Notes under the pieces: generated by a model
What the model saw: the letters and a program-made list of their open reading frames with translations, nothing else
Told to the model about the DNA's origin: nothing
Database searches by the model: none
Part shown: positions 21,501 through 35,407 of the stretch, in pieces
Layout of the letters: each line of letters starts with the position of its first letter
How positions within the stretch are numbered: the stretch's first letter is position 1
Origin: Anaerolineales bacterium
Lineage (GTDB): Bacteria; Chloroflexota; Anaerolineae; Anaerolineales; Villigracilaceae
Direction: 5' to 3'
Length of the DNA: 64,000 nt
NCBI GenBank assembly: GCA_034411715.1
Contig: DAOUMJ010000209.1
Location: 11,604 to 75,603, forward strand
Made by a program: the position numbers and the translations under genes

Positions 21501-23162
21501 CTTTATACTTGTTCGCAGGACAGCATCAAGCACATCACCGAGCAGGTGATCGAGCATGGATTGAACCGCGTGGTGGTAGCGAGTTGCACGCCGCTGACGC
21601 ATCAGCCGCTGTTTCAGGATAGCATCCGCATGGCGGGGTTGAACCCGTACCTGTACGAGATGGCGAATATTCGCAATCAGTGTTCGTGGGTGCATTCGAC
21701 GGACAAGGAAGCCGCGACGGCCAAAGCCAAAGACCTGGTGCGCGCGGCGGTGGCGCGCGCCGCGTTGCTCGAAGCGCAGCACACGATTGACGTGCCGGTG
21801 AAAAACGCCGCGCTGATCGTTGGCGGAGGCGTCGCGGGGATGACGGCTGCCCTTTCCTTGGCGGAACAAGGATTCCCGGTGCATCTCGTGGAACGGGAAG
21901 CGGAACTCGGCGGTAACTTGCGATACGTGACTGCCCTCACCCCCGGCCCCTCTCCAGATTACGGGAGAGGGGGGCAAAGAAGCCCGCAAGAAATTTTGCA
22001 AAGCCTGGCGGAAAAAATTCAAGCAAATCCAAATATCGCCCTGCACATGAACAGCGAGGTTGCGTCCTCCGCTGGCTTCATGGGCAATTTCACCAGCACG
22101 CTCAAAGGCCGCGACGGAAGCCGCTGTGAGATCGCGCACGGCGCGACCATCCTCGCGACCGGCGCGCAGGAGTATCGTGGTCCTGAATATGGCTATGGGA
22201 GCGATCCGCGCATTGTGACGCAGCAGGAATTCGAGGCGGTGTTGGCAGGTAAACAGGTAAACATGTACACAGGTACACAGGGCGGCTCATCCCTGTCTGC
22301 CTGTTTACCTGTGTACGTGTCTACCGCCTCACCAGACTCCGTCGTTATGATCCAATGCGTCGGGCCGGCAGAAAAATTCTGTGCGCGCATTTGCTGTGCG
22401 GTGGCGCTGAAGAACGCGATTCGACTCAAGGAAGTCAATCCAAAAGCGGAAGTTGTGATTCTGTATCGCGACATCCGCACTTATGGTTTCAAGGAACGGT
22501 TGTATACAGAGGCGCGCGAAAAGGGCGTGGTTTTCATTCGCTATGAGCCTGAACGCAAACCGGAAGTCGCAATTACCAATTACCAATTACCAATTACCGT
22601 TCAAGTTTGGGAGCCTGTTTTACGAAAGGAACTGACCCTCCATCCCGACCTGCTCGTGCTTTCGATGCCGGTTGTACCCAGAGAGGATGCTCACGAAACG
22701 GCGGCCGCGTTTAAAGTCCCGCGCGACGCGGACGGGTTCTTCCTCGAAGCGCACGTCAAACTGCGCCCGGTGGATTTCGCCTCGGACGGCGCTTTCATGG
22801 CTGGGATGGCGCATTATCCGAAATTGCTTGAAGAAACCATGATCCAGGCGCAGGCCGCGGCGGCGCGGGCGGCGCGCGTTCTCAGCCGCGAAACGCTAAC
22901 CGCGGGCGGGCGCGTCGCAGTGGTGGATCAAACTCAATGCACCGGCTGTCTGACCTGCGTCCGCATCTGTCCGTTTGGCGTGCCGAAGATTCGCATTGAC
23001 ATGACCGGCGTCGGCGGAATTGTTGGCGCGGCTTATGTCGAAGCCGCCGTCTGTCAAGGCTGTGGCATTTGCGCGGCGGAATGTCCCGCGCGCGCGATCC
23101 AGTTAATGCACTACACCGACGCGCAGATGACGGCGAAGGTTGGCGCGTTGATACAAGGATGA
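18411..23162 (+). CDS. Giant HdrA / GltD(NfnB)-like / HdrA fusion flavoprotein (HdrL-like, 1583 aa)
   Basis: HdrA N-terminus 'VVGGGIAGMQASLDLAEQG..TNDCAMC'. GltD-like block 'CPAHQRAQGYIALIREGRWADALRVIKMDNPFPGICGRICNHRCETAC...RVAIIGAGPCGLTAAQD'. HdrA core 'LQCIGSRDQTHDYCSAVCCMYATKEA'. Second FAD site 'IVGGGVAGMTAALSLAEQG'. C-terminal ferredoxin 'CTGCLTCVRICPFG..CQGCGICAAECP'. Repeat elements lie in frame inside it. The exact start is uncertain because it falls inside a repeat. Confidence 0.85.
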   Translation: MKDEMKVPAKEEDERMKSNDSSFIPSTSLRASLHNSSLPVGAVMVVGGGIAGMQASLDLAEQGFKVYLVEKNSAIGGHMAQLDKTFPTNDCAMCTISPRLVETGRHPNIEILTNSEVLDMTGQAGNFTATIERRPRYIDTTKCIACGDCVKVCPVLVPDTFNEGLASRRAAYKLYPQAVPNAFAIEKNGIAPCRDACPAHQRAQGYIALIREGRWADALRVIKMDNPFPGICGRICNHRCETACNRGEVDEPINIRALKRFVTDKVYSEPRQPVGPVEIKYPDQRVAIIGAGPCGLTAAQDIIRQGYPVTIFEAMPVAGGMLRLGVPEFRLPAEIIEREVADIVDLGIELRLNTPVTNLDDIFNEGFTSVLISVGAHEGVRLPIPGANLDGVIINTQFLKDVRLGKYETKDESGKPALSEVEGMKEERGDGSDNSSFISHLSSLGKNVLVLGGGNVAIDVARTAVRLGCKVSMACLESREQMPAHEWEIQAALDEGIAIYNDRSFEQIFSDENGRARGVECMQVSSFSFDEMGRLSVEKIPESNHVLPCDTVIFSVGQRAGLAFIPADAGVGLTERKTIAINPNTFAATRPGVFAAGDSVSGTAFVIEAVASGHKAAESILRYLQGEALERPPKPELPVVKLTRQEIDDRIARGEIKKQPRVPLPELPVEQRINNFIEVEGGYDDESAQREAARCLACGICSECMSCTFACGVNAIDHDMVARQEALNIGAVILAPGYQAYHAELSEEFGYGRYPNVVTSLQFERLLSASGPTMGHVHRPSDHRPPKRIAFLQCIGSRDQTHDYCSAVCCMYATKEAVIAKEHQPGLDVHVFMMDMRAFSKGYWGYFERARERYGIQYHRSRVSMIREDPNTHDLILSYMSDQLSVISDQFDMVVLSVGMEISESVRNLGRRLGVELDDYGFCQTVQFNPLETSRPGIYAVGPFREPKDIPESVVEGSGAAGAAAARLSHARFALTVSREYPEERDVSQESPRVGVFVCSCGTNIGGFVDVPTVSEYASKLPNVVHAESNLYTCSQDSIKHITEQVIEHGLNRVVVASCTPLTHQPLFQDSIRMAGLNPYLYEMANIRNQCSWVHSTDKEAATAKAKDLVRAAVARAALLEAQHTIDVPVKNAALIVGGGVAGMTAALSLAEQGFPVHLVEREAELGGNLRYVTALTPGPSPDYGRGGQRSPQEILQSLAEKIQANPNIALHMNSEVASSAGFMGNFTSTLKGRDGSRCEIAHGATILATGAQEYRGPEYGYGSDPRIVTQQEFEAVLAGKQVNMYTGTQGGSSLSACLPVYVSTASPDSVVMIQCVGPAEKFCARICCAVALKNAIRLKEVNPKAEVVILYRDIRTYGFKERLYTEAREKGVVFIRYEPERKPEVAITNYQLPITVQVWEPVLRKELTLHPDLLVLSMPVVPREDAHETAAAFKVPRDADGFFLEAHVKLRPVDFASDGAFMAGMAHYPKLLEETMIQAQAAAARAARVLSRETLTAGGRVAVVDQTQCTGCLTCVRICPFGVPKIRIDMTGVGGIVGAAYVEAAVCQGCGICAAECPARAIQLMHYTDAQMTAKVGALIQG
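19628..19742. repeat. GATGAAG-family palindromic element in frame inside the GltD-like part of hdrL
   Basis: Left AAAGATGAAAGCGGAAAG. Core CCTGAGCGAAGTCGAAGGGATGAAAGAGG. Right TTCATCTTTCATCTCTCATCTTTCATCTTT. Translates to 'YETKDESGKPALSEVEGMKEERGDGSDNSSFISHLSSL'. Confidence 0.85.
21947..21972. repeat. CCCCTCTCC...GGAGAGGGG hairpin in frame in hdrL
   Basis: CCCCTCTCC [AGATTACG] GGAGAGGGG. Translates within 'TPGPSPDYGRGGQ', which is extra relative to the HdrA paralogue. Confidence 0.8.
22246..22325. repeat. GTACACAG-family palindrome in frame inside the hdrL-like CDS
   Basis: CAGGTAAACAGGTAAACATGTACACAGGTACACAGGG [CGGCTCAT] CCCTGTCTGCCTGTTTACCTGTGTACGTGTCTACC. Translates to 'AGKQVNMYTGTQGGSSLSACLPVYVST', a segment with no counterpart in the HdrA paralogue (14701..17865). 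Confidence 0.85.
22571..22598. repeat. (AATTACC)x4 heptamer tract inside hdrL
   Basis: AATTACCAATTACCAATTACCAATTACC. Related tracts at 36587-36610 (in res) and 59451-59478 (upstream of fdhA). Confidence 0.9.
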
Positions 23163-23187
23163 AGGATGAAAGATGAAGGATGAAATT
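23157..23187. repeat. GATGAAG heptamer array containing the hdrL stop codon
   Basis: GGATGAAGGATGAAAGATGAAGGATGAAATT. The TGA at 23160-23162 is part of the first unit. Confidence 0.85.
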
Positions 23188-23232
23188 GCGTGGAACGTGT
23201 TGCGTCCCTTCGACTTCACTCAGGACAAGATT

Positions 23233-23274
23233 GTGTGTTCCGTGTTTACCTGTGCACTTGTGTACCTGTCTACC
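23233..23274. repeat. GTACACAG-family half element (reverse-orientation arm only), upstream of the Sec-mvhD
   Basis: GTGTGTTCCGTGTTTACCTGTGCACTTGTGTACCTGTCTACC. Confidence 0.75.
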
Positions 23275-23285
23275 TGACGCGACCA

Positions 23286-23711
23286 ATGAATGAACCGTTG
23301 AACATCATCGCTTATTGCTGTGAGCATTGCGCCTACGCCGCGGCCGATCTCGCGGGCGGACTGCGGATGCAGTATCCGCCTTCGGTGAAGGTGGTGCTGT
23401 TGCCCTGCACCGGTAAGCTGGATGTGCTGCTGGCGCTGAAAGCCTTCGAGGACGGCGCGGACGGCGTGATGACGGCTGGCTGACTGCCGGGCGACTGCCA
23501 TTACCTGGAAGGTAATGCTAATGCAAAGCGCAGAGTGGAATACCTGCAATCATTATTGAAAGAAATCGGCCTGGAGCCGGAGCGGGCGCGCATGTTCAAT
23601 CTCTCGGCGGCCATGGCTGGAAAATTTGTGGAAGCGACGAAAGAAATGACGGAGAAGATTGAAAAGTTGGGTCCGAATCCGTTGAAAACAAGGATGAATG
23701 ATGAAGGATGA
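23286..23711 (+). CDS. mvhD: MvhD-type protein with in-frame UGA (23481-23483) read as selenocysteine. The ORF track truncates it at 23483.
   Basis: Collinear with the paralogue at 17880: 'GADGVYVVAC-PIGNCHH' versus 'GADGVMTAG[UGA]LPGDCHY'. The frame stays open after the UGA for 75 codons with homology to the end ('KLGPNPLK'). A hairpin lies 16 nt downstream. Confidence 0.8.
23499..23517 (+). promoter_or_regulatory. Candidate bacterial SECIS hairpin for mvhD UGA
   Basis: Perfect 7-bp stem CATTACC / GGTAATG with loop TGGAA, starting 16 nt after the UGA. Confidence 0.5.
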
Positions 23712-23720
23712 AGGATGAAA
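23691..23720. repeat. GATGAAG heptamer array (left flank of the four-helix-bundle gene) containing the Sec-mvhD stop
   Basis: AGGATGAATGATGAAGGATGAAGGATGAAA. Confidence 0.85.
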
Positions 23721-23760
23721 AACGTAATACGGAAATCGCGCAAAGATATGGAGACGATCA

Positions 23761-24132
23761 ATGAACAATGAACAGCCACAAGACTTGCGGACAAGGACGA
23801 GCGATTTTGCATTGAGAATCATTCGGCTGTATGTAAGCCTGCCAAAGGCAACCGAAGCCCAGGTCATCGGAAAGCAGGTTCTACGTTCAGGCACATCGGT
23901 TGGCGCGCATTATCGCGAGGGTCATCGAGCGAAGTCCGACGCCGATATCATCAATAAATTCGAGACCGCGTTGCAGGAATTGGACGAGACCGATTACTGG
24001 TTGGAATTGCTCGTGAAAGCCGATATTGTCCCTGCCCAAAAACTGGAATCGCTTCGCAAAGAAACGAGCGAACTTCTCGCAATATTCACAACCATCGTAA
24101 CCAAAATCAAGAAGAGAACTGGAAAGAAGTGA
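23761..24132 (+). CDS. Four-helix-bundle protein (23S rRNA intervening-sequence protein family)
   Basis: 'FALRIIRLYVSLPKATEAQVIGKQVLRSGTSVGAHYREGHRAKSDADIINKF..ALQELDETDYWLELL' matches the family signature. AT-richer than its neighbours and flanked by inverted GATGAAG arrays. Confidence 0.8.
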   Translation: MNNEQPQDLRTRTSDFALRIIRLYVSLPKATEAQVIGKQVLRSGTSVGAHYREGHRAKSDADIINKFETALQELDETDYWLELLVKADIVPAQKLESLRKETSELLAIFTTIVTKIKKRTGKK

Positions 24133-24139
24133 TGAAACC

Positions 24140-24173
24140 CATTCATCCTTCATCCTTTATCCTTCATCCTTTC
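24140..24173. repeat. Inverted GATGAAG array (right flank of the four-helix-bundle gene)
   Basis: CATTCATCCTTCATCCTTTATCCTTCATCCTTTC, the reverse complement of the units at 23691-23720. Confidence 0.85.
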
Positions 24174-24184
24174 GGAGGTGAAGA

Positions 24185-24868
24185 ATGATCGTTGCAGAAC
24201 AAAAAACTTTGGAAGAGATCAAGAACCTGGTCGGCGGCGCGAAGAACGTGCTGGTCGTCGGATGCGGCACGTGCGTCACCGTCTGCTTCGCAGGCGGGGC
24301 GCGCGAGGCGGCCATCGTCTCGGCCGAGTTGCGGATGGCCTCCAAACTCGACGGCGACCCGAAAGCCGTCACCGATGTGACCGTCCAGCGGCAATGCGAG
24401 TGGGAGTATCTCGATGAGATCGCCGAGCAGATCAAGGATGTGGATGTGGTGCTTTCGCTTGGCTGCGGCGTGGGCGTGCAAGCCATCGCGGAACACTTCC
24501 CGAACGCGTGGGTTGTGCCTGGGCTGAATACCAAGTTCATGGGACTGCCGACCGAGCAGGGAGTCTGGGCGGAACGTTGCGCGGCCTGCGGCGACTGCAT
24601 CCTCGGGCTGACGGGCGGAATCTGCCCGATCGCGCGCTGTTCCAAGTCGCTTCTTAATGGACCTTGCGGCGGGTCGCTGGATGGACACTGCGAGATCAAC
24701 GAGGAGGTCTCCTGCGCCTGGCAGTTGATCTATGACCGCTTGAAGAGTATGGACAAACTGGAAGTCCTCATGGACATCCAGCCGCCCAAGAATTGGCGAA
24801 CGTCCCGCGACGGCGGCCCGCGCAAGATCGTGCGCGAAGACCTGCGTCTGATCGCAGAGGAGAAGTAG
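24185..24868 (+). CDS. metV: Methylene-THF reductase small subunit (MetV, Cys-rich MTHFR_C-type)
   Basis: 'VVGCGTCVTVCFAGG', 'CAACGDCILGLTGGICPIARCSKSLLNGPCGGS..GHCE'. Immediately upstream of metF. Confidence 0.85.
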   Translation: MIVAEQKTLEEIKNLVGGAKNVLVVGCGTCVTVCFAGGAREAAIVSAELRMASKLDGDPKAVTDVTVQRQCEWEYLDEIAEQIKDVDVVLSLGCGVGVQAIAEHFPNAWVVPGLNTKFMGLPTEQGVWAERCAACGDCILGLTGGICPIARCSKSLLNGPCGGSLDGHCEINEEVSCAWQLIYDRLKSMDKLEVLMDIQPPKNWRTSRDGGPRKIVREDLRLIAEEK

Positions 24869-31950: not shown

Positions 31951-34656
31951 ATGCCAACGATCAACCGCTACGAAAGACAATTCCTCGACGCGCTGAAAGA
32001 CATCTTCGTCGGCGCAAAAGTGGAAGGGGATTCGGGCTACATCAACCTGATGAAGATCAAGTCGCGCTATTTTACCGCGGGCGTCTTTCCGCAGTTAATG
32101 AAAGACATCGAAAAAGCCTGCAAGCCTTTTGAGAAGCCCTTCCGCGAGGAATTGTTCGATAAACTCTACGATTTCTTCAAGCGTTATTTCAGCGAAAGCG
32201 GCTCGATCTATTTCCGCTATACGGCTTTGCACAACAACGTGTACGAGAGGGTGTACACCGACGACCGCGACGTGATGTTGTTCTGGAAGACGCACATGCT
32301 GTATTACGTCAAGACCGACCGATTGTTCAACAGCATGGAAATCGAAGTGGACGGCGAGAAATTCTTCTTCGACGTTTCGGGGATGGAACTTAAACGCGCC
32401 AACGAAAAGCGCGAGTTGACCTACGCCTTTCAGTCATACAAAAGCGGCAAAGCAATTTTGTCCGTTGGTTATTCCGAAAAGGGACGCAAGACCAAGATTG
32501 ACGACATCCTGCGCGCCTTGAAGGAAAAGGGCATCACGCTCGGCGAAGAGACGCTCGAAAAAGCCTTCCGCGTTTTCGAGAAGCAAAGCGAAGTGGATTA
32601 CTTCATCAACAAGAACGCCAAAGCCTTCCTCAAAGAGCAATTCGACTTATGGCGGTATCAATATGTGTTTTCAGGCGAGAGCGACTTCGACGAGACGCGT
32701 CTGAAACAACTGCAAGCCATCAAGGGCATTGCCTACAAGATCATTGACTTCATCGCCCAATTTGAAGACGAACTGGTGCGCGTGTGGAATAAACCCAAGT
32801 TTGTTAGAAACTCGCACTACATCATCACCCTCGACCACGTCATTGCGAGAAGCGGAGCGACGAAGCAATCTCCCAATGGCAAGAAGAAAGGCCGCGAACA
32901 GGGGATTGCTTCGGGTCTCGATACGGCGGGAGAACGCCGCCTACTCGACCCTCGCAATGACGGACTGCTTGCGAAGATTTTCGCCCACAAAGGCATGAAA
33001 GTTCAATTGCAGGAATGGCAGGATTTGGGCATGGTGGATTCCAGGTTCAAACTCGACCAGGTTCTCGAAAAGGACTTGCTCGGCGAACCCATTCACCCGC
33101 AAGTTCAATTCCTGCCGCTGGACACCAAATATTTCCCCGATTTGGAACTGGATATTCTGGCGCTCTTCGACGATCTCGATTCTGCTCTGGATGGCTGGTT
33201 GATTCACAGCGAGAATTATCAGGCGCTGAATACGTTTTCGCGGAAATTTCAGGAGCGAGTGAAGTGCGTACATATTGATCCGCCGTACAATACGGAAACA
33301 AGCGGCTTTCTTTACGCAAATACATACCAACATTCCAGTTGGCTTACAATGATGGAAAATCGCATCGCAGAAAGTGTGGGGTTTTTGACACGAGACGGTT
33401 CAGTGTTATGTCACATTGACGAAAACGAATACGAAAGATTGCATTTGCTGTTTGAGCAACTCTCTATCCCAAACGCAGGTACCATAACATGGGACAAAAG
33501 AAATCCGATGAATTCGGGAAGCGGTATAGCAACTCAACACGAGTATATTGTTTGGAGAACCAAGCAAGAATCCCCGATTTACCTTAGAAACGAGAGCGTT
33601 TTAGAAATGCTTCAAGTGGCGCGCGAGTTGGTGAAGAAATACGGAAAAGGATCGGAGAAGGCTCAGAAAGAATATGCGACATGGGTGACAAATAATGAAA
33701 ACTTATCAGGAGGCGAAAAGGCTTATCGTTATCTTGATAAGGAGGGTGTAGTCTATCAAAGCGTAAGTTTGAGAGCTCCCGAACCAAGAACCGACCCCAA
33801 GTTCTTTGTACCCTTAATTCATCCTGTCACCAAGAAACCCTGCGCCGTTCCTCCAAATGGGTTTTCTCGAACTCCCGACACTCTGAAGAGAATGGTGGAT
33901 GACGGCGAGATCATTTTTGGTGATGATGAGACAACGCAACCCCGACAAAAAGTGCCGCTAACCGAAGGGAAAAGAAGACAAATTGCATCACTCATTCAAG
34001 ACGGTAAAAAGGGTAAAGCAGACTTAGATTTACTGGGACTTGATTTTCCTTACTGTCATCCAGTTTCTCTATATGAGAGATTGACGGGTGCGGCATCGGA
34101 TTCCCCCGATGACATTGTTCTAGATTTCTTTGCTGGTTCTGGAACAACTGCGCATGCTGTATTCAAGTTGAATCGTCTCGATAACGGCAAGCGCAAGTAC
34201 ATTCTGGTCGAAATGGGCGAGCATTTCAACACGGTCATCTTGCCGCGCGTCAAGAAGGTTGCCTTTAACGATACATGGAAAGACGGCAAGGCACAGGCAG
34301 GCAAAGGCATCAGCCACTTTGCCAAGTACTTTGAACTGGAACAATACGAAGACGCCCTGCGCCGCGCCCGCTATGAAGAAAGCGATCTGTTCGCCGCCAG
34401 TGACGCCTACACCAGTTACGTCTTCCTGCGCGACTTGAAAATGCTCGAGGCGGTGTCGCTCGACAAGATGAAGAACAAGGTGGATGTCCAGTTGGATAAA
34501 CTCTACGATGGCATTGACCTGGCTGAAACGCTCTCGTGCGTCACGGGCAAGTGGATCAAGCGTATTACCAAAGATATGGTCGAGTTTCAGGATGGCACAT
34601 CCGCAAGTTTGACGGAGCCTGATTGGGCGCTGGTCAAGCCGTTGGTGTGGTGGTAA
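31951..34656 (+). CDS. mod: Type III-like R-M DNA methyltransferase (beta-class N6A/N4C, 901 aa) with a long N-terminal domain
   Basis: Motif IV 'VHIDPPYNT' (DPPY at 33277-33288) precedes motif I 'LDFFAGSGTTAHA' (from 34123). N-terminal 'EVDYFINKNAKAFLKEQFDLW' box. In-frame hairpin repeat at 32839-32961. Confidence 0.85.
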   Translation: MPTINRYERQFLDALKDIFVGAKVEGDSGYINLMKIKSRYFTAGVFPQLMKDIEKACKPFEKPFREELFDKLYDFFKRYFSESGSIYFRYTALHNNVYERVYTDDRDVMLFWKTHMLYYVKTDRLFNSMEIEVDGEKFFFDVSGMELKRANEKRELTYAFQSYKSGKAILSVGYSEKGRKTKIDDILRALKEKGITLGEETLEKAFRVFEKQSEVDYFINKNAKAFLKEQFDLWRYQYVFSGESDFDETRLKQLQAIKGIAYKIIDFIAQFEDELVRVWNKPKFVRNSHYIITLDHVIARSGATKQSPNGKKKGREQGIASGLDTAGERRLLDPRNDGLLAKIFAHKGMKVQLQEWQDLGMVDSRFKLDQVLEKDLLGEPIHPQVQFLPLDTKYFPDLELDILALFDDLDSALDGWLIHSENYQALNTFSRKFQERVKCVHIDPPYNTETSGFLYANTYQHSSWLTMMENRIAESVGFLTRDGSVLCHIDENEYERLHLLFEQLSIPNAGTITWDKRNPMNSGSGIATQHEYIVWRTKQESPIYLRNESVLEMLQVARELVKKYGKGSEKAQKEYATWVTNNENLSGGEKAYRYLDKEGVVYQSVSLRAPEPRTDPKFFVPLIHPVTKKPCAVPPNGFSRTPDTLKRMVDDGEIIFGDDETTQPRQKVPLTEGKRRQIASLIQDGKKGKADLDLLGLDFPYCHPVSLYERLTGAASDSPDDIVLDFFAGSGTTAHAVFKLNRLDNGKRKYILVEMGEHFNTVILPRVKKVAFNDTWKDGKAQAGKGISHFAKYFELEQYEDALRRARYEESDLFAASDAYTSYVFLRDLKMLEAVSLDKMKNKVDVQLDKLYDGIDLAETLSCVTGKWIKRITKDMVEFQDGTSASLTEPDWALVKPLVWW
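32839..32961. repeat. GTCATTGCGAG...CTCGCAATGAC nested-hairpin element in frame in mod (123 nt = 41 codons)
   Basis: Outer arms GTCATTGCGAG / CTCGCAATGAC. Inner GAAGCAATCTCCC / GGGGATTGCTTC. Translates to 'VIARSGATKQSPNGKKKGREQGIASGLDTAGERRLLDPRND'. Confidence 0.85.
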
Positions 34657-34823
34657 CCGTCCACGAATGAAACCACGAATGCACGAATGACCATGCTCGT
34701 ATTCGTTTATTCGTGAACAATTCGTGGATGGTCGGCGATGGAAGAACCGTCCACGAATGAAACCACGAATGCACGAATGTTGGCGGTGCGGAATTCGTTT
34801 ACTCGTGAACAATTCGTGGATGG
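34657..34823. repeat. Two tandem ~77-nt CACGAAT-family hairpin elements (period 90 nt) right after the mod stop
   Basis: Each copy: CCGTCCACGAATGAAACCACGAATGCACGAATG-(loop)-ATTCGTTTAYTCGTGAACAATTCGTGGATGG. Copies at 34657-34732 and 34747-34823. Confidence 0.9.
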
Positions 34824-34844
34824 AGCTTTTTGAAAGGAGACCCT

Positions 34845-35282
34845 ATGTCACTTGTAACGGACGCAACTGGAAACGACCTGACATATAAAATCATCGGCCT
34901 TGCTATGGAAGTCCATAATGAGATTGGGCATGGCTTCAAGGAGGATGTGTACGAGAAGGCGATGGAAGTCAAGCTCAACCATGCGGGCATGGAACCCTTC
35001 CGTCAACATGAAGTATTCGTTGATTTTGAAGGAGAAAGGGTTGCAACCTTCTATTTGGATTTATTTCCAAACAGGCAGGTGGTGGTCGAGATCAAGGCGT
35101 TCAGCCACCAACTGACCAACGATGAACTGGCGCAAGTCATAAACTACTTGAAGGCCGCTGGCGCGCCTGTGAGTCTGTTGCTCAATTTTGGACGCAGAAG
35201 ATTGGAATATCGGCGCATCTTCCCTGGCAAGGATATGAAACCTGTGCAGCGAATTGGCAGGGATAATGCCATCAAAAGGTGA
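34845..35282 (+). CDS. GxxExxY-family protein (PD-(D/E)XK-like small protein)
   Basis: Start at ATG 34845 after AGGAG. 'IGLAMEVHNEIGHGFKEDVYEKAMEVKL' (G-FK-E-DV-Y), 'VVVEIKA', 'QVINYLKAAGAPVSLLLNFG'. Flanked by CACGAAT-type repeats. Confidence 0.8.
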   Translation: MSLVTDATGNDLTYKIIGLAMEVHNEIGHGFKEDVYEKAMEVKLNHAGMEPFRQHEVFVDFEGERVATFYLDLFPNRQVVVEIKAFSHQLTNDELAQVINYLKAAGAPVSLLLNFGRRRLEYRRIFPGKDMKPVQRIGRDNAIKR

Positions 35283-35293
35283 CATTGCTTCCA

Positions 35294-35392
35294 AATTCGT
35301 TTATTCGTGAAATATTCGTGGATGGTCTGCCCCGCGAAACCATCCAAGAATGATGCCGCGAATTCGTTTATTCGTGATAAATTCGTGGACGG
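35294..35392. repeat. CACGAAT-family arms downstream of the GxxExxY gene
   Basis: ATTCGTTTATTCGTGAAATATTCGTGGATGG ... CCATCCAAGAATG ... GAATTCGTTTATTCGTGATAAATTCGTGGACGG. Confidence 0.85.
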
Positions 35393-35407
35393 TTCATACT
35401 GGAGCAA

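Follow-up and report, generated by a model that had tools for sequence, protein, structure and literature searches.

The 64,000-nucleotide stretch analysed here (the window; contig DAOUMJ010000209.1 of the Anaerolineales bacterium assembly GCA_034411715.1) contains an hdr-met operon in which a small gene of the '23S rRNA intervening sequence protein' family is enclosed by inverted arrays of a tandem heptamer. The whole insert spans window positions 23690-24173 (484 bp) between mvhD (PF02662) and metV (PF12225), with metF and an hdrCB-like gene as further neighbours, and has the orientation of the operon. Both arms are arrays of 4.3 heptamer copies, made of GGATGAA on the left and of its complement on the right. 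The left arm (23690-23719; AAGGATGAATGATGAAGGATGAAGGATGAA) and the right arm (24142-24171) are each 30 nt long, 93% complementary, and separated by 422 nt. The stop codon of mvhD (TGA, 23709-23711) and the last mvhD codons lie inside the left arm, and about 11-13 nt separate the end of the right arm from the metV ATG (24185), with GGAGG lying directly 3' of the arm. The original prediction, made from the sequence alone, had described an inverted array around the gene, a left array supplying the mvhD stop, and a right array ending 11 nt before metV; inverted-repeat and tandem-repeat analysis bears out all three. Its array coordinates were also essentially right, apart from the trivial point that the end it gave, 24173, exceeds the 30 letters it quoted, which end at 24169. 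Allowing at most one mismatch, the 14-mer GGATGAAGGATGAA matches 11 times in the window against 0.05 times in shuffled sequence, and this count, together with the family flank scores given below, rejects a chance origin of the arms.

The open reading frame (ORF) 23761-24132 matches PF05635 with 73.5 bits (cut-off 33.8; model positions 8-103 of 106) and TIGR02436 with 91.6 bits (cut-off 24; model positions 3-109 of 109). The closest solved structure, a sequence relative, is chain A of 2RLD (E = 2.5e-24, residues 9-116), an entry of five chains with the title 'Uncharacterized protein'. With a G+C content of 0.49 against 0.587 for the genome, and profile scores above the cut-offs, the earlier description of a 123-aa, AT-richer gene of the rRNA intervening sequence family stands. 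Compared with members of its clade, the gene has nonsynonymous divergence (dN) of 0.10-0.27 and saturated synonymous sites (dS), and the codon comparison supports purifying selection on the 123-aa protein. About 8 of the 27 closest homologues are split or carry stop codons.

At the RNA level, no promoter match was found on the plus strand of the insert. A 33-bp terminal helix is predicted in both the minimum-free-energy and the centroid fold (-145.4 kcal/mol, z = -2.8), and the locus thus presents the long stem with an S23p-family ORF in its loop by which an intervening sequence (IVS) is recognised. The location is another one, the insert being in the mvhD-metV spacer and not in helix 25 or 45 of 23S rRNA. 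An Rfam search of 23100-24400 gave nothing at E up to 1, and PADLOC gave no match for the locus. The matches of the ORF are to PF05635 and TIGR02436 only, and no HUH/Y1 transposase was found. There is no reverse transcriptase, template repeat or variable repeat at the mvhD-metV locus, and Avd, the accessory protein of diversity-generating retroelements, was rejected on these grounds as the identity of the product. The features of the locus are collected in Table 1.

Table 1. Features of the insert and its surroundings in window coordinates (RBS, ribosome-binding site; Sec, selenocysteine).
Feature	Position	Strand	Remarks
Left arm	23690..23719	+	4.3 tandem heptamers GGATGAA = GATGAAG in the register ending AG; homology to closest cassettes starts here
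Leader	23720..23760	+	RBS GGAGA 23750-23754, 6 nt before ATG; no sigma-70-like promoter on + strand
Four-helix-bundle gene, 123 aa	23761..24132	+	PF05635 / TIGR02436, '23S rRNA intervening sequence protein' family; intact
Trailer, stop codon to right arm	24133..24141	+	
Right arm	24142..24173	+	Reverse complement of left array, TTCATCC units; right end of element ~24173
Host sequence again	24174..24187	+	metV RBS GGAGG 24174-24178, ATG 24185; GGAGGTG...ATG junction also in G030 and G022
Upstream host gene mvhD (PF02662)	23286..23711	+	In-frame TGA (Sec) 23481-23483; tail KTRMNDEG* encoded by left arm
Extra GGATGAA array, + orientation, at hdrA stop	23155..23184	+	93% complementary to right arm; 957-nt loop

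Gene and arms across genomes

Nucleotide alignment with the closest copies shows homology that begins at AAGGATGAATGATGAAGG and stops at ...CATCCTTT, with unrelated flanks. Since these bounds coincide with the outer edges of the arms, the element corresponds to 23690-24173. The closest gene relatives, in genomes G190 (84% protein identity) and G032 (85%, the copy being split in two pieces), are found outside any hdr operon, at a junction of two ABC-transporter genes. With the G190 copy (L194) the left arm shares its first 18 nt without a difference, and the second-position variant unit TGATGAA occurs in this copy and L194 only. When two genes at different sites are at least 70% identical in protein, their repeat units agree within one mismatch in 93% of cases, against 1-2% for pairs below 50% identity (permutation p = 0.006). 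Units of the NNNTGAA type are found in 20 of 20 sampled members of the clade to which this gene belongs, with GGATGAA, AGATGAA, ATTATGA, GAATGCA and ACGATGA as sub-clade variants. Because the unit is unchanged despite the saturated synonymous sites, the arrays are under sequence constraint. These alignments support the view that arms and gene were inherited and relocated together and that a constrained repeat unit tracks the protein clade, and they favour the arms as ends of the element rather than its target. The original prediction had named both options; the homology bounds and the way the unit follows the gene clade speak for ends, while a gene-less hairpin at the same junction in the relative G030, described below, makes a target or recombination component possible.

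Read on the gene sense strand, the left-arm units of 71 cassettes follow the pattern N-N-R-K-H-A-G, in which A and G are each present in 96%. Their information content is 4.72 bits, compared with 3.32 +/- 0.12 bits for letter-shuffled units, and the unit of the present copy reads GATGAAG in this AG-ending register. A fixed cassette polarity, (NNNNHAG)n, gene, (CTDNNNN)n, is supported. The period is specific to the protein family: within this order, 159 of 197 four-helix-bundle arms have period 7, while 42 of 44 arms of a second family, GxxExxY (TIGR04256), have period 8-10 and none has period 7.

To score the layout itself, the 250 nt left of each gene were compared with the reverse complement of the 250 nt on its right, taking the best ungapped match with a threshold of at least 12; same-sized pseudo-genes slid along the same loci served as controls. 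In 60 genomes of the same order, 71% of the 59 top PF05635 genes reach this threshold, against 1.6% of 1731 controls, and 42% reach a score of at least 16, against 0% of controls (Mann-Whitney p = 6e-26). For 39 GxxExxY genes of relatives the proportions are 77% and 1.9% of 957 controls. A cross-phylum set of 73 PF05635 genes gives 77% against 2.6% of 534 controls; this set represents the ANIAEG subfamily, retrieved with a 5-sequence alignment as query, with the clade of the present gene sampled within the order only. Its members come from Acidobacteriota, Planctomycetota, Bacteroidota, Verrucomicrobiota, Gemmatimonadota, Elusimicrobiota, bacteria of the Candidate Phyla Radiation (CPR), Luteimonas, Desulfosarcina and the metagenome-assembled genome (MAG) of a Methanophagales archaeon. 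The order of parts is constant: stop codon of the host gene, left array, short leader with an RBS, gene, right array, and RBS of the next host gene. At 41 or more of the 59 loci the gene has the orientation of both its neighbours, a lower bound since the crude longest-ORF calls from which orientation was taken are noisy in this G+C-rich genome and mis-call this very locus.

Some loci depart from the simple layout or share a site. Eight genomes (loci L016, L019, L033, L037, L041, L046, L049 and L060) have a four-helix-bundle cassette in the spacer between the E1-beta and E2 genes of a 2-oxoacid dehydrogenase operon; two unrelated gene clades, each with a unit of its own, are represented among them, so that this spacer was occupied at least twice. 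At L204 (G069:C12:1-162) the copy number is very unequal, with at least 14 perfect GGATGAA units in the left arm and about 4 in the right. L194, L195 and L196 (G190, G019 and G162) contain an extra palindrome of about 30 nt, GACACTTGC...GCAGGTGTG, between stop codon and right arm; it is itself flanked by GGATGAA units and is missing in the copy of this window.

Paralogues, dispersed arrays and the orthologous junction

The assembly, a fragmented one from a metagenome (3.95 Mb, 306 contigs, 58.7% G+C), has 11 PF05635 matches by profile search, five of them Avd genes and six stand-alone. Every Avd gene has a reverse transcriptase upstream and a template repeat after it, and none has heptamer arrays; the five diversity-generating retroelements are located at C251:2870, C220:11235, C65:6197, C62:42404 and C87:493, with the template-like repeat GGCGGCTCGTGGAACAACAA.... 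Inverted short-unit arrays enclose four of the six stand-alone genes, with the units GGATGAA, GGTGTCA, GTGCGTA and CTAAAGTG; at the gene on C278, which has ATTATGA units, another repeat has taken the place of most of the right arm, and the flank of the one on C147 is complex. An inverted-repeat search of the genome with loops of 120-1500 nt yielded four further array-type pairs, each with an AT-richer small gene in the loop, and all four genes are GxxExxY. The systematic flanking of both families proposed at the outset thus holds for four of six stand-alone genes and for four GxxExxY genes; the degraded C278 and complex C147 loci fall short of it, and the five array-less paralogues are Avd genes in a different context.

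The window has a GxxExxY gene of its own (~34866-35283), framed by CACGAATG-type arrays. Within the region 34655-35395, two complete short hairpins of CACGAATG type precede this gene and two right arms follow it, the outermost pair (34744-34758 / 35381-35395) being 100% complementary. The locus looks like a nested or duplicated cassette.

A census of the genome found 1397 tandem arrays of period 6-9, with 52 short-loop inverted pairs. The largest unit families are AACACGC (111 arrays), ACACAGGT (110), AATTACC (85), AGTGATC (67), GGTGTCA (66) and GGATGAA (58), and arrays of different families often abut. While the TRF census counts 58 arrays of GGATGAA, the unit family comprises 111 arrays in the genome; single arms in plus orientation lie directly after stop codons and those in minus orientation directly before start sites. 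At loops longer than 500 nt, the census of this genome shows no excess of inverted over direct same-unit pairs, and long-range pairs are background. One GGATGAA array, at the hdrA stop codon (23155-23184), is specific to this genome, being absent from the relatives G030 and G022; it could pair with the right arm of the cassette and so enclose mvhD together with the cassette.

A count of 10 or more (GGATGAA)3 matches was reached, among 201 genomes of the order, by 19 of the 48 carrying this gene clade and by 2 of the 153 without it. Arrays of AGTGATC are found in 8 of 24 genomes with the AGTGATC gene clade and in 7 of 177 without, and they associate as strongly with the GGATGAA clade. Many AGTGATC arrays are present in the genome under study (G000, 64 matches) and in G226 (136), neither of which has the AGTGATC clade. 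A genome with many cassettes of one kind also has many of others.

The orthologous junction was compared in 13 relatives through their MetV homologues (69-92% identity), as the original prediction had proposed. The four-helix-bundle gene is absent between mvhD and metV in all 13, which supports the conclusion that the cassette was not part of the ancestral hdr-met operon. Ten relatives lack a hairpin, their spacers measuring 0-30 nt. In G030 (MetV 92% identical), the junction carries a gene-less GGATGAA hairpin, AAGGATGAAAGATGAAGGA and TTCATCCTTCATCCTTCCGTCCTCATCCTT with a 17-nt loop; in G022 (90%) the loop between GGATGAA arms contains a nested octamer array of unrelated sequence, and G053 has a different hairpin. 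The octamer array is of the GTACACG type (L002 ~1868-2000), so that repeat elements nest in one another's loops. Since the right-hand junction CATCCTT..GGAGGTG..ATG is common to G000, G030 and G022, a GGATGAA element, with or without the gene, was probably in place before the three operon lineages split. MetV of the present genome is nearer to these two genomes of other genera (92% and 90%) than to G003 and G008 of its own genus (88% and 86%), which may reflect a transfer of the hdr-met operon across genera or a loose taxonomy.

The same alignments bear on mvhD. Its in-frame TGA (23481-23483) aligns with a Cys codon (TGC or TGT) in four relatives and with TGA in six, the classical Sec/Cys position, and mvhD in this genome is therefore, by alignment, a selenoprotein gene, as the label 'Sec-mvhD' of the original prediction implied. 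The spacer between hdrA and mvhD holds further repeat elements, for which reason the true start of mvhD is probably ATG 23286.

Probable origin and working of the cassette

Taken together, the results are best explained by a promoterless selfish cassette of IVS type, in which the gene and its cognate arms form one unit that sits harmlessly between cistrons and is expressed by read-through. We regard this as probable. It is also the most economical reading and supports the proposal, made from the sequence alone, of a small selfish cassette that links a repeat family to a cargo gene. The steps by which such a cassette would work can be stated with differing confidence. Expression from the host operon by read-through, with the gene using its own RBS, is likely in view of the lack of a plus-strand promoter match and the co-orientation with the neighbours. 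In the transcript the arms could pair into a stem of ~33 bp that RNase III would cut, releasing a small mRNA and separating the flanking cistrons; by analogy with rRNA IVSs, we give this an even chance. The arrays may, somewhat more tentatively, be binding sites of the encoded protein, and as a guess, prompted by the five chains of the 2RLD entry, one heptamer might be bound per subunit. A more doubtful step is the spread or loss of copies through events at the DNA level in which the arms take part, such as recombination of arrays that share a unit family.

Several observations weigh against the cassette reading. Movement of the cassette has not been observed, and to our knowledge a four-helix bundle has no catalytic activity able to move DNA. 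As for the marks of an insertion sequence or of a miniature inverted-repeat transposable element (MITE), there is no transposase, and the homology breakpoints show no target duplication; the divergence between filled and empty sites is too great for certainty on this last point. Only 6 of the 111 GGATGAA arrays start a plus/minus pair and the remainder are single arms, so that pairing may be secondary to the repeats. Mismatches within arms are of G:U type in 146 cases and of A:C type in 169 on the sense strand (p = 0.2), and without an excess of G:U, selection on an RNA stem is not demonstrated. This mismatch pattern and the prevalence of single arms call for caution against a purely structural reading, and the conserved feature seems to be the repeats themselves more than their pairing. 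The genome-wide co-occurrence of arrays and gene clade, strong as it is, is not clade-specific, and therefore does not show that a gene drives 'its' dispersed arrays. Lastly, the gene-less hairpin of G030 and the nested array of G022 occupy the very junction of the insert, which leaves room for an insertion into an older hairpin.

In that case, resident intercistronic arrays would have come before the gene, which was placed in their loop, most plausibly by recombination or gene conversion between the arms of a donor cassette and resident arms of the same unit. In favour of this history, the main rival of the cassette reading, are the two hairpins and the right-hand junction common to all three genomes, the 1397 short-unit arrays and 52 short-loop inverted pairs of the present genome, and the E1-beta/E2 spacer held by two unrelated gene clades in different genomes. 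The arms, however, are nearer to those of the closest gene relatives elsewhere than to the hairpins at the same site, TGATGAA being found only with L194, and unit and gene clade covary across sites; moreover, the G030 hairpin could equally be a cassette without its former interior. We therefore consider an older hairpin unlikely. It is much less probable still that the arms are a host-selected structural RNA, a stabilising or processing stem or a terminator-like insulator tuning hdrA-mvhD against metVF, with the gene incidental. The predicted 33-bp stem closes the entire insert, and the arms lie exactly between a stop codon and the next RBS, here and at most loci, but the arms lack a G:U-over-A:C bias, most arrays of the GGATGAA family are unpaired single arms, and 10 relatives run the operon with spacers of 0-30 nt and no hairpin. 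The invariant AG, the family-specific period and the conservation of the unit past synonymous saturation would also be left unexplained.

A role of the protein as accessory subunit or regulator of an Hdr-MvhD-MetVF complex might be read from its position, as the gene is co-oriented, tightly packed between mvhD and metV, provided with its own RBS, intact and under purifying selection. We rejected it, as virtually without likelihood, because the gene is missing from the junction in 13 of 13 relatives; its closest relatives lie between the two ABC-transporter genes and at other unrelated junctions, and ~8 of the 27 closest homologues are split or stop-bearing. A wider extension of the cassette reading is speculative, and we think it rather improbable. 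Four-helix-bundle and GxxExxY proteins would be sequence-specific readers of two parallel classes of phased repeats, which within the order studied are 7-nt units ending in AG for the former and ~9-nt units of CRCRRA type for the latter. Each clade would keep and now and then spread its own repeat family, the gene-less short-unit arrays that number hundreds to thousands in such genomes (also those inside genes, and perhaps the cyanobacterial heptamers discussed below) would be offspring of the cassettes, and 23S rRNA IVSs would be the case of a special insertion site.

PF05635/TIGR02436 and GxxExxY are very large multi-copy families without known function. The literature on the former consists of work on rRNA IVSs, the link to Avd and a few passing mentions; the rRNA IVS is the only context studied so far, and its origin and purpose are open too. 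No account of the heptamer-armed layout outside rRNA turned up in a search by family accessions and heptamer repeats. The locus described here joins a protein, a sequence-constrained 7-nt repeat and a hairpin build as one evolving unit, which extends from Chloroflexota to Acidobacteriota, Bacteroidota, CPR bacteria and the Methanophagales archaeon MAG. 'Function unknown' then becomes a set of concrete questions, namely whether the protein binds the heptamer and whether RNase III cleaves the stem. If true, the reading would account for genomes littered with short-unit arrays that alter gene ends, as here the mvhD stop and tail, and small genes of this kind should be annotated as inserts rather than operon members.

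Relation to known systems

The short tandemly repeated repetitive (STRR) heptamers of cyanobacteria are tandem 7-nt units in the intergenic spacers of operons, and two of the three classical units fit the ...CAG register; we know of no gene family that has been linked to them. Avd belongs to the PF05635 family like the present protein, but Avd copies have no heptamer arms, and the present copy has no reverse transcriptase, template or variable repeat. Together with the Ssn system treated next, the nearest parallel in logic is offered by the REPINs and tnpA-REP genes of the repetitive extragenic palindrome (REP) and REP-associated tyrosine transposase (RAYT) systems, where likewise one small gene lies between inverted short repeats, the repeat is also dispersed without the gene (111 arrays here), and gene clade and repeat sequence covary. 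In contrast, the protein here is a four-helix bundle and theirs an HUH/Y1 transposase, the repeats here are tandem 7-nt arrays and theirs single imperfect palindromes, and the genome-level link between gene and repeat is not clade-specific here.

Ssn is a GIY-YIG single-strand DNA nuclease of demonstrated cleavage activity, framed by the NTS repeats that it cuts (PMC11893778). The system of Ssn and NTS/SRM repeats resembles the present one in that a small gene is often framed on either side by a hairpin-forming repeat of which hundreds of copies occur around other genes (PMC11893778). The Ssn product recognises and cuts its repeat, whereas the protein here has no catalytic fold and binding is only proposed; the architecture of the repeat also differs from the heptamer arrays.

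In build, the insert matches the ORF-bearing IVSs of 23S rRNA in Coxiella and Leptospira (PMC4990558). In Coxiella burnetii, the IVS is inserted in helix 45; its terminal stem of 28 bp has been found by experiment to be a substrate of RNase III, its loop contains an S23p ORF, and this ORF has tandem heptamers at its side (PMC4990558). The two kinds of insert are similar in size (428 nt there, 484 bp here) and share terminal inverted repeats with a stem of ~28-33 bp, an S23p / PF05635 ORF in the loop and heptamers next to it; both have no promoter of their own, would be carried within a host transcript, and are sporadically distributed. They differ in that the present insert occupies an mRNA operon spacer instead of helix 25 or 45, and phased heptamers make up the whole of its arms. 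The Coxiella and other rRNA IVSs are excised by RNase III (PMC4990558), which would apply here by analogy. The Coxiella ORF is decaying and probably untranslated, whereas the ORF here is intact and has a good RBS. The insert between mvhD and metV is probably the same kind of element as the ORF-bearing 23S rRNA IVS, here residing in an mRNA operon.

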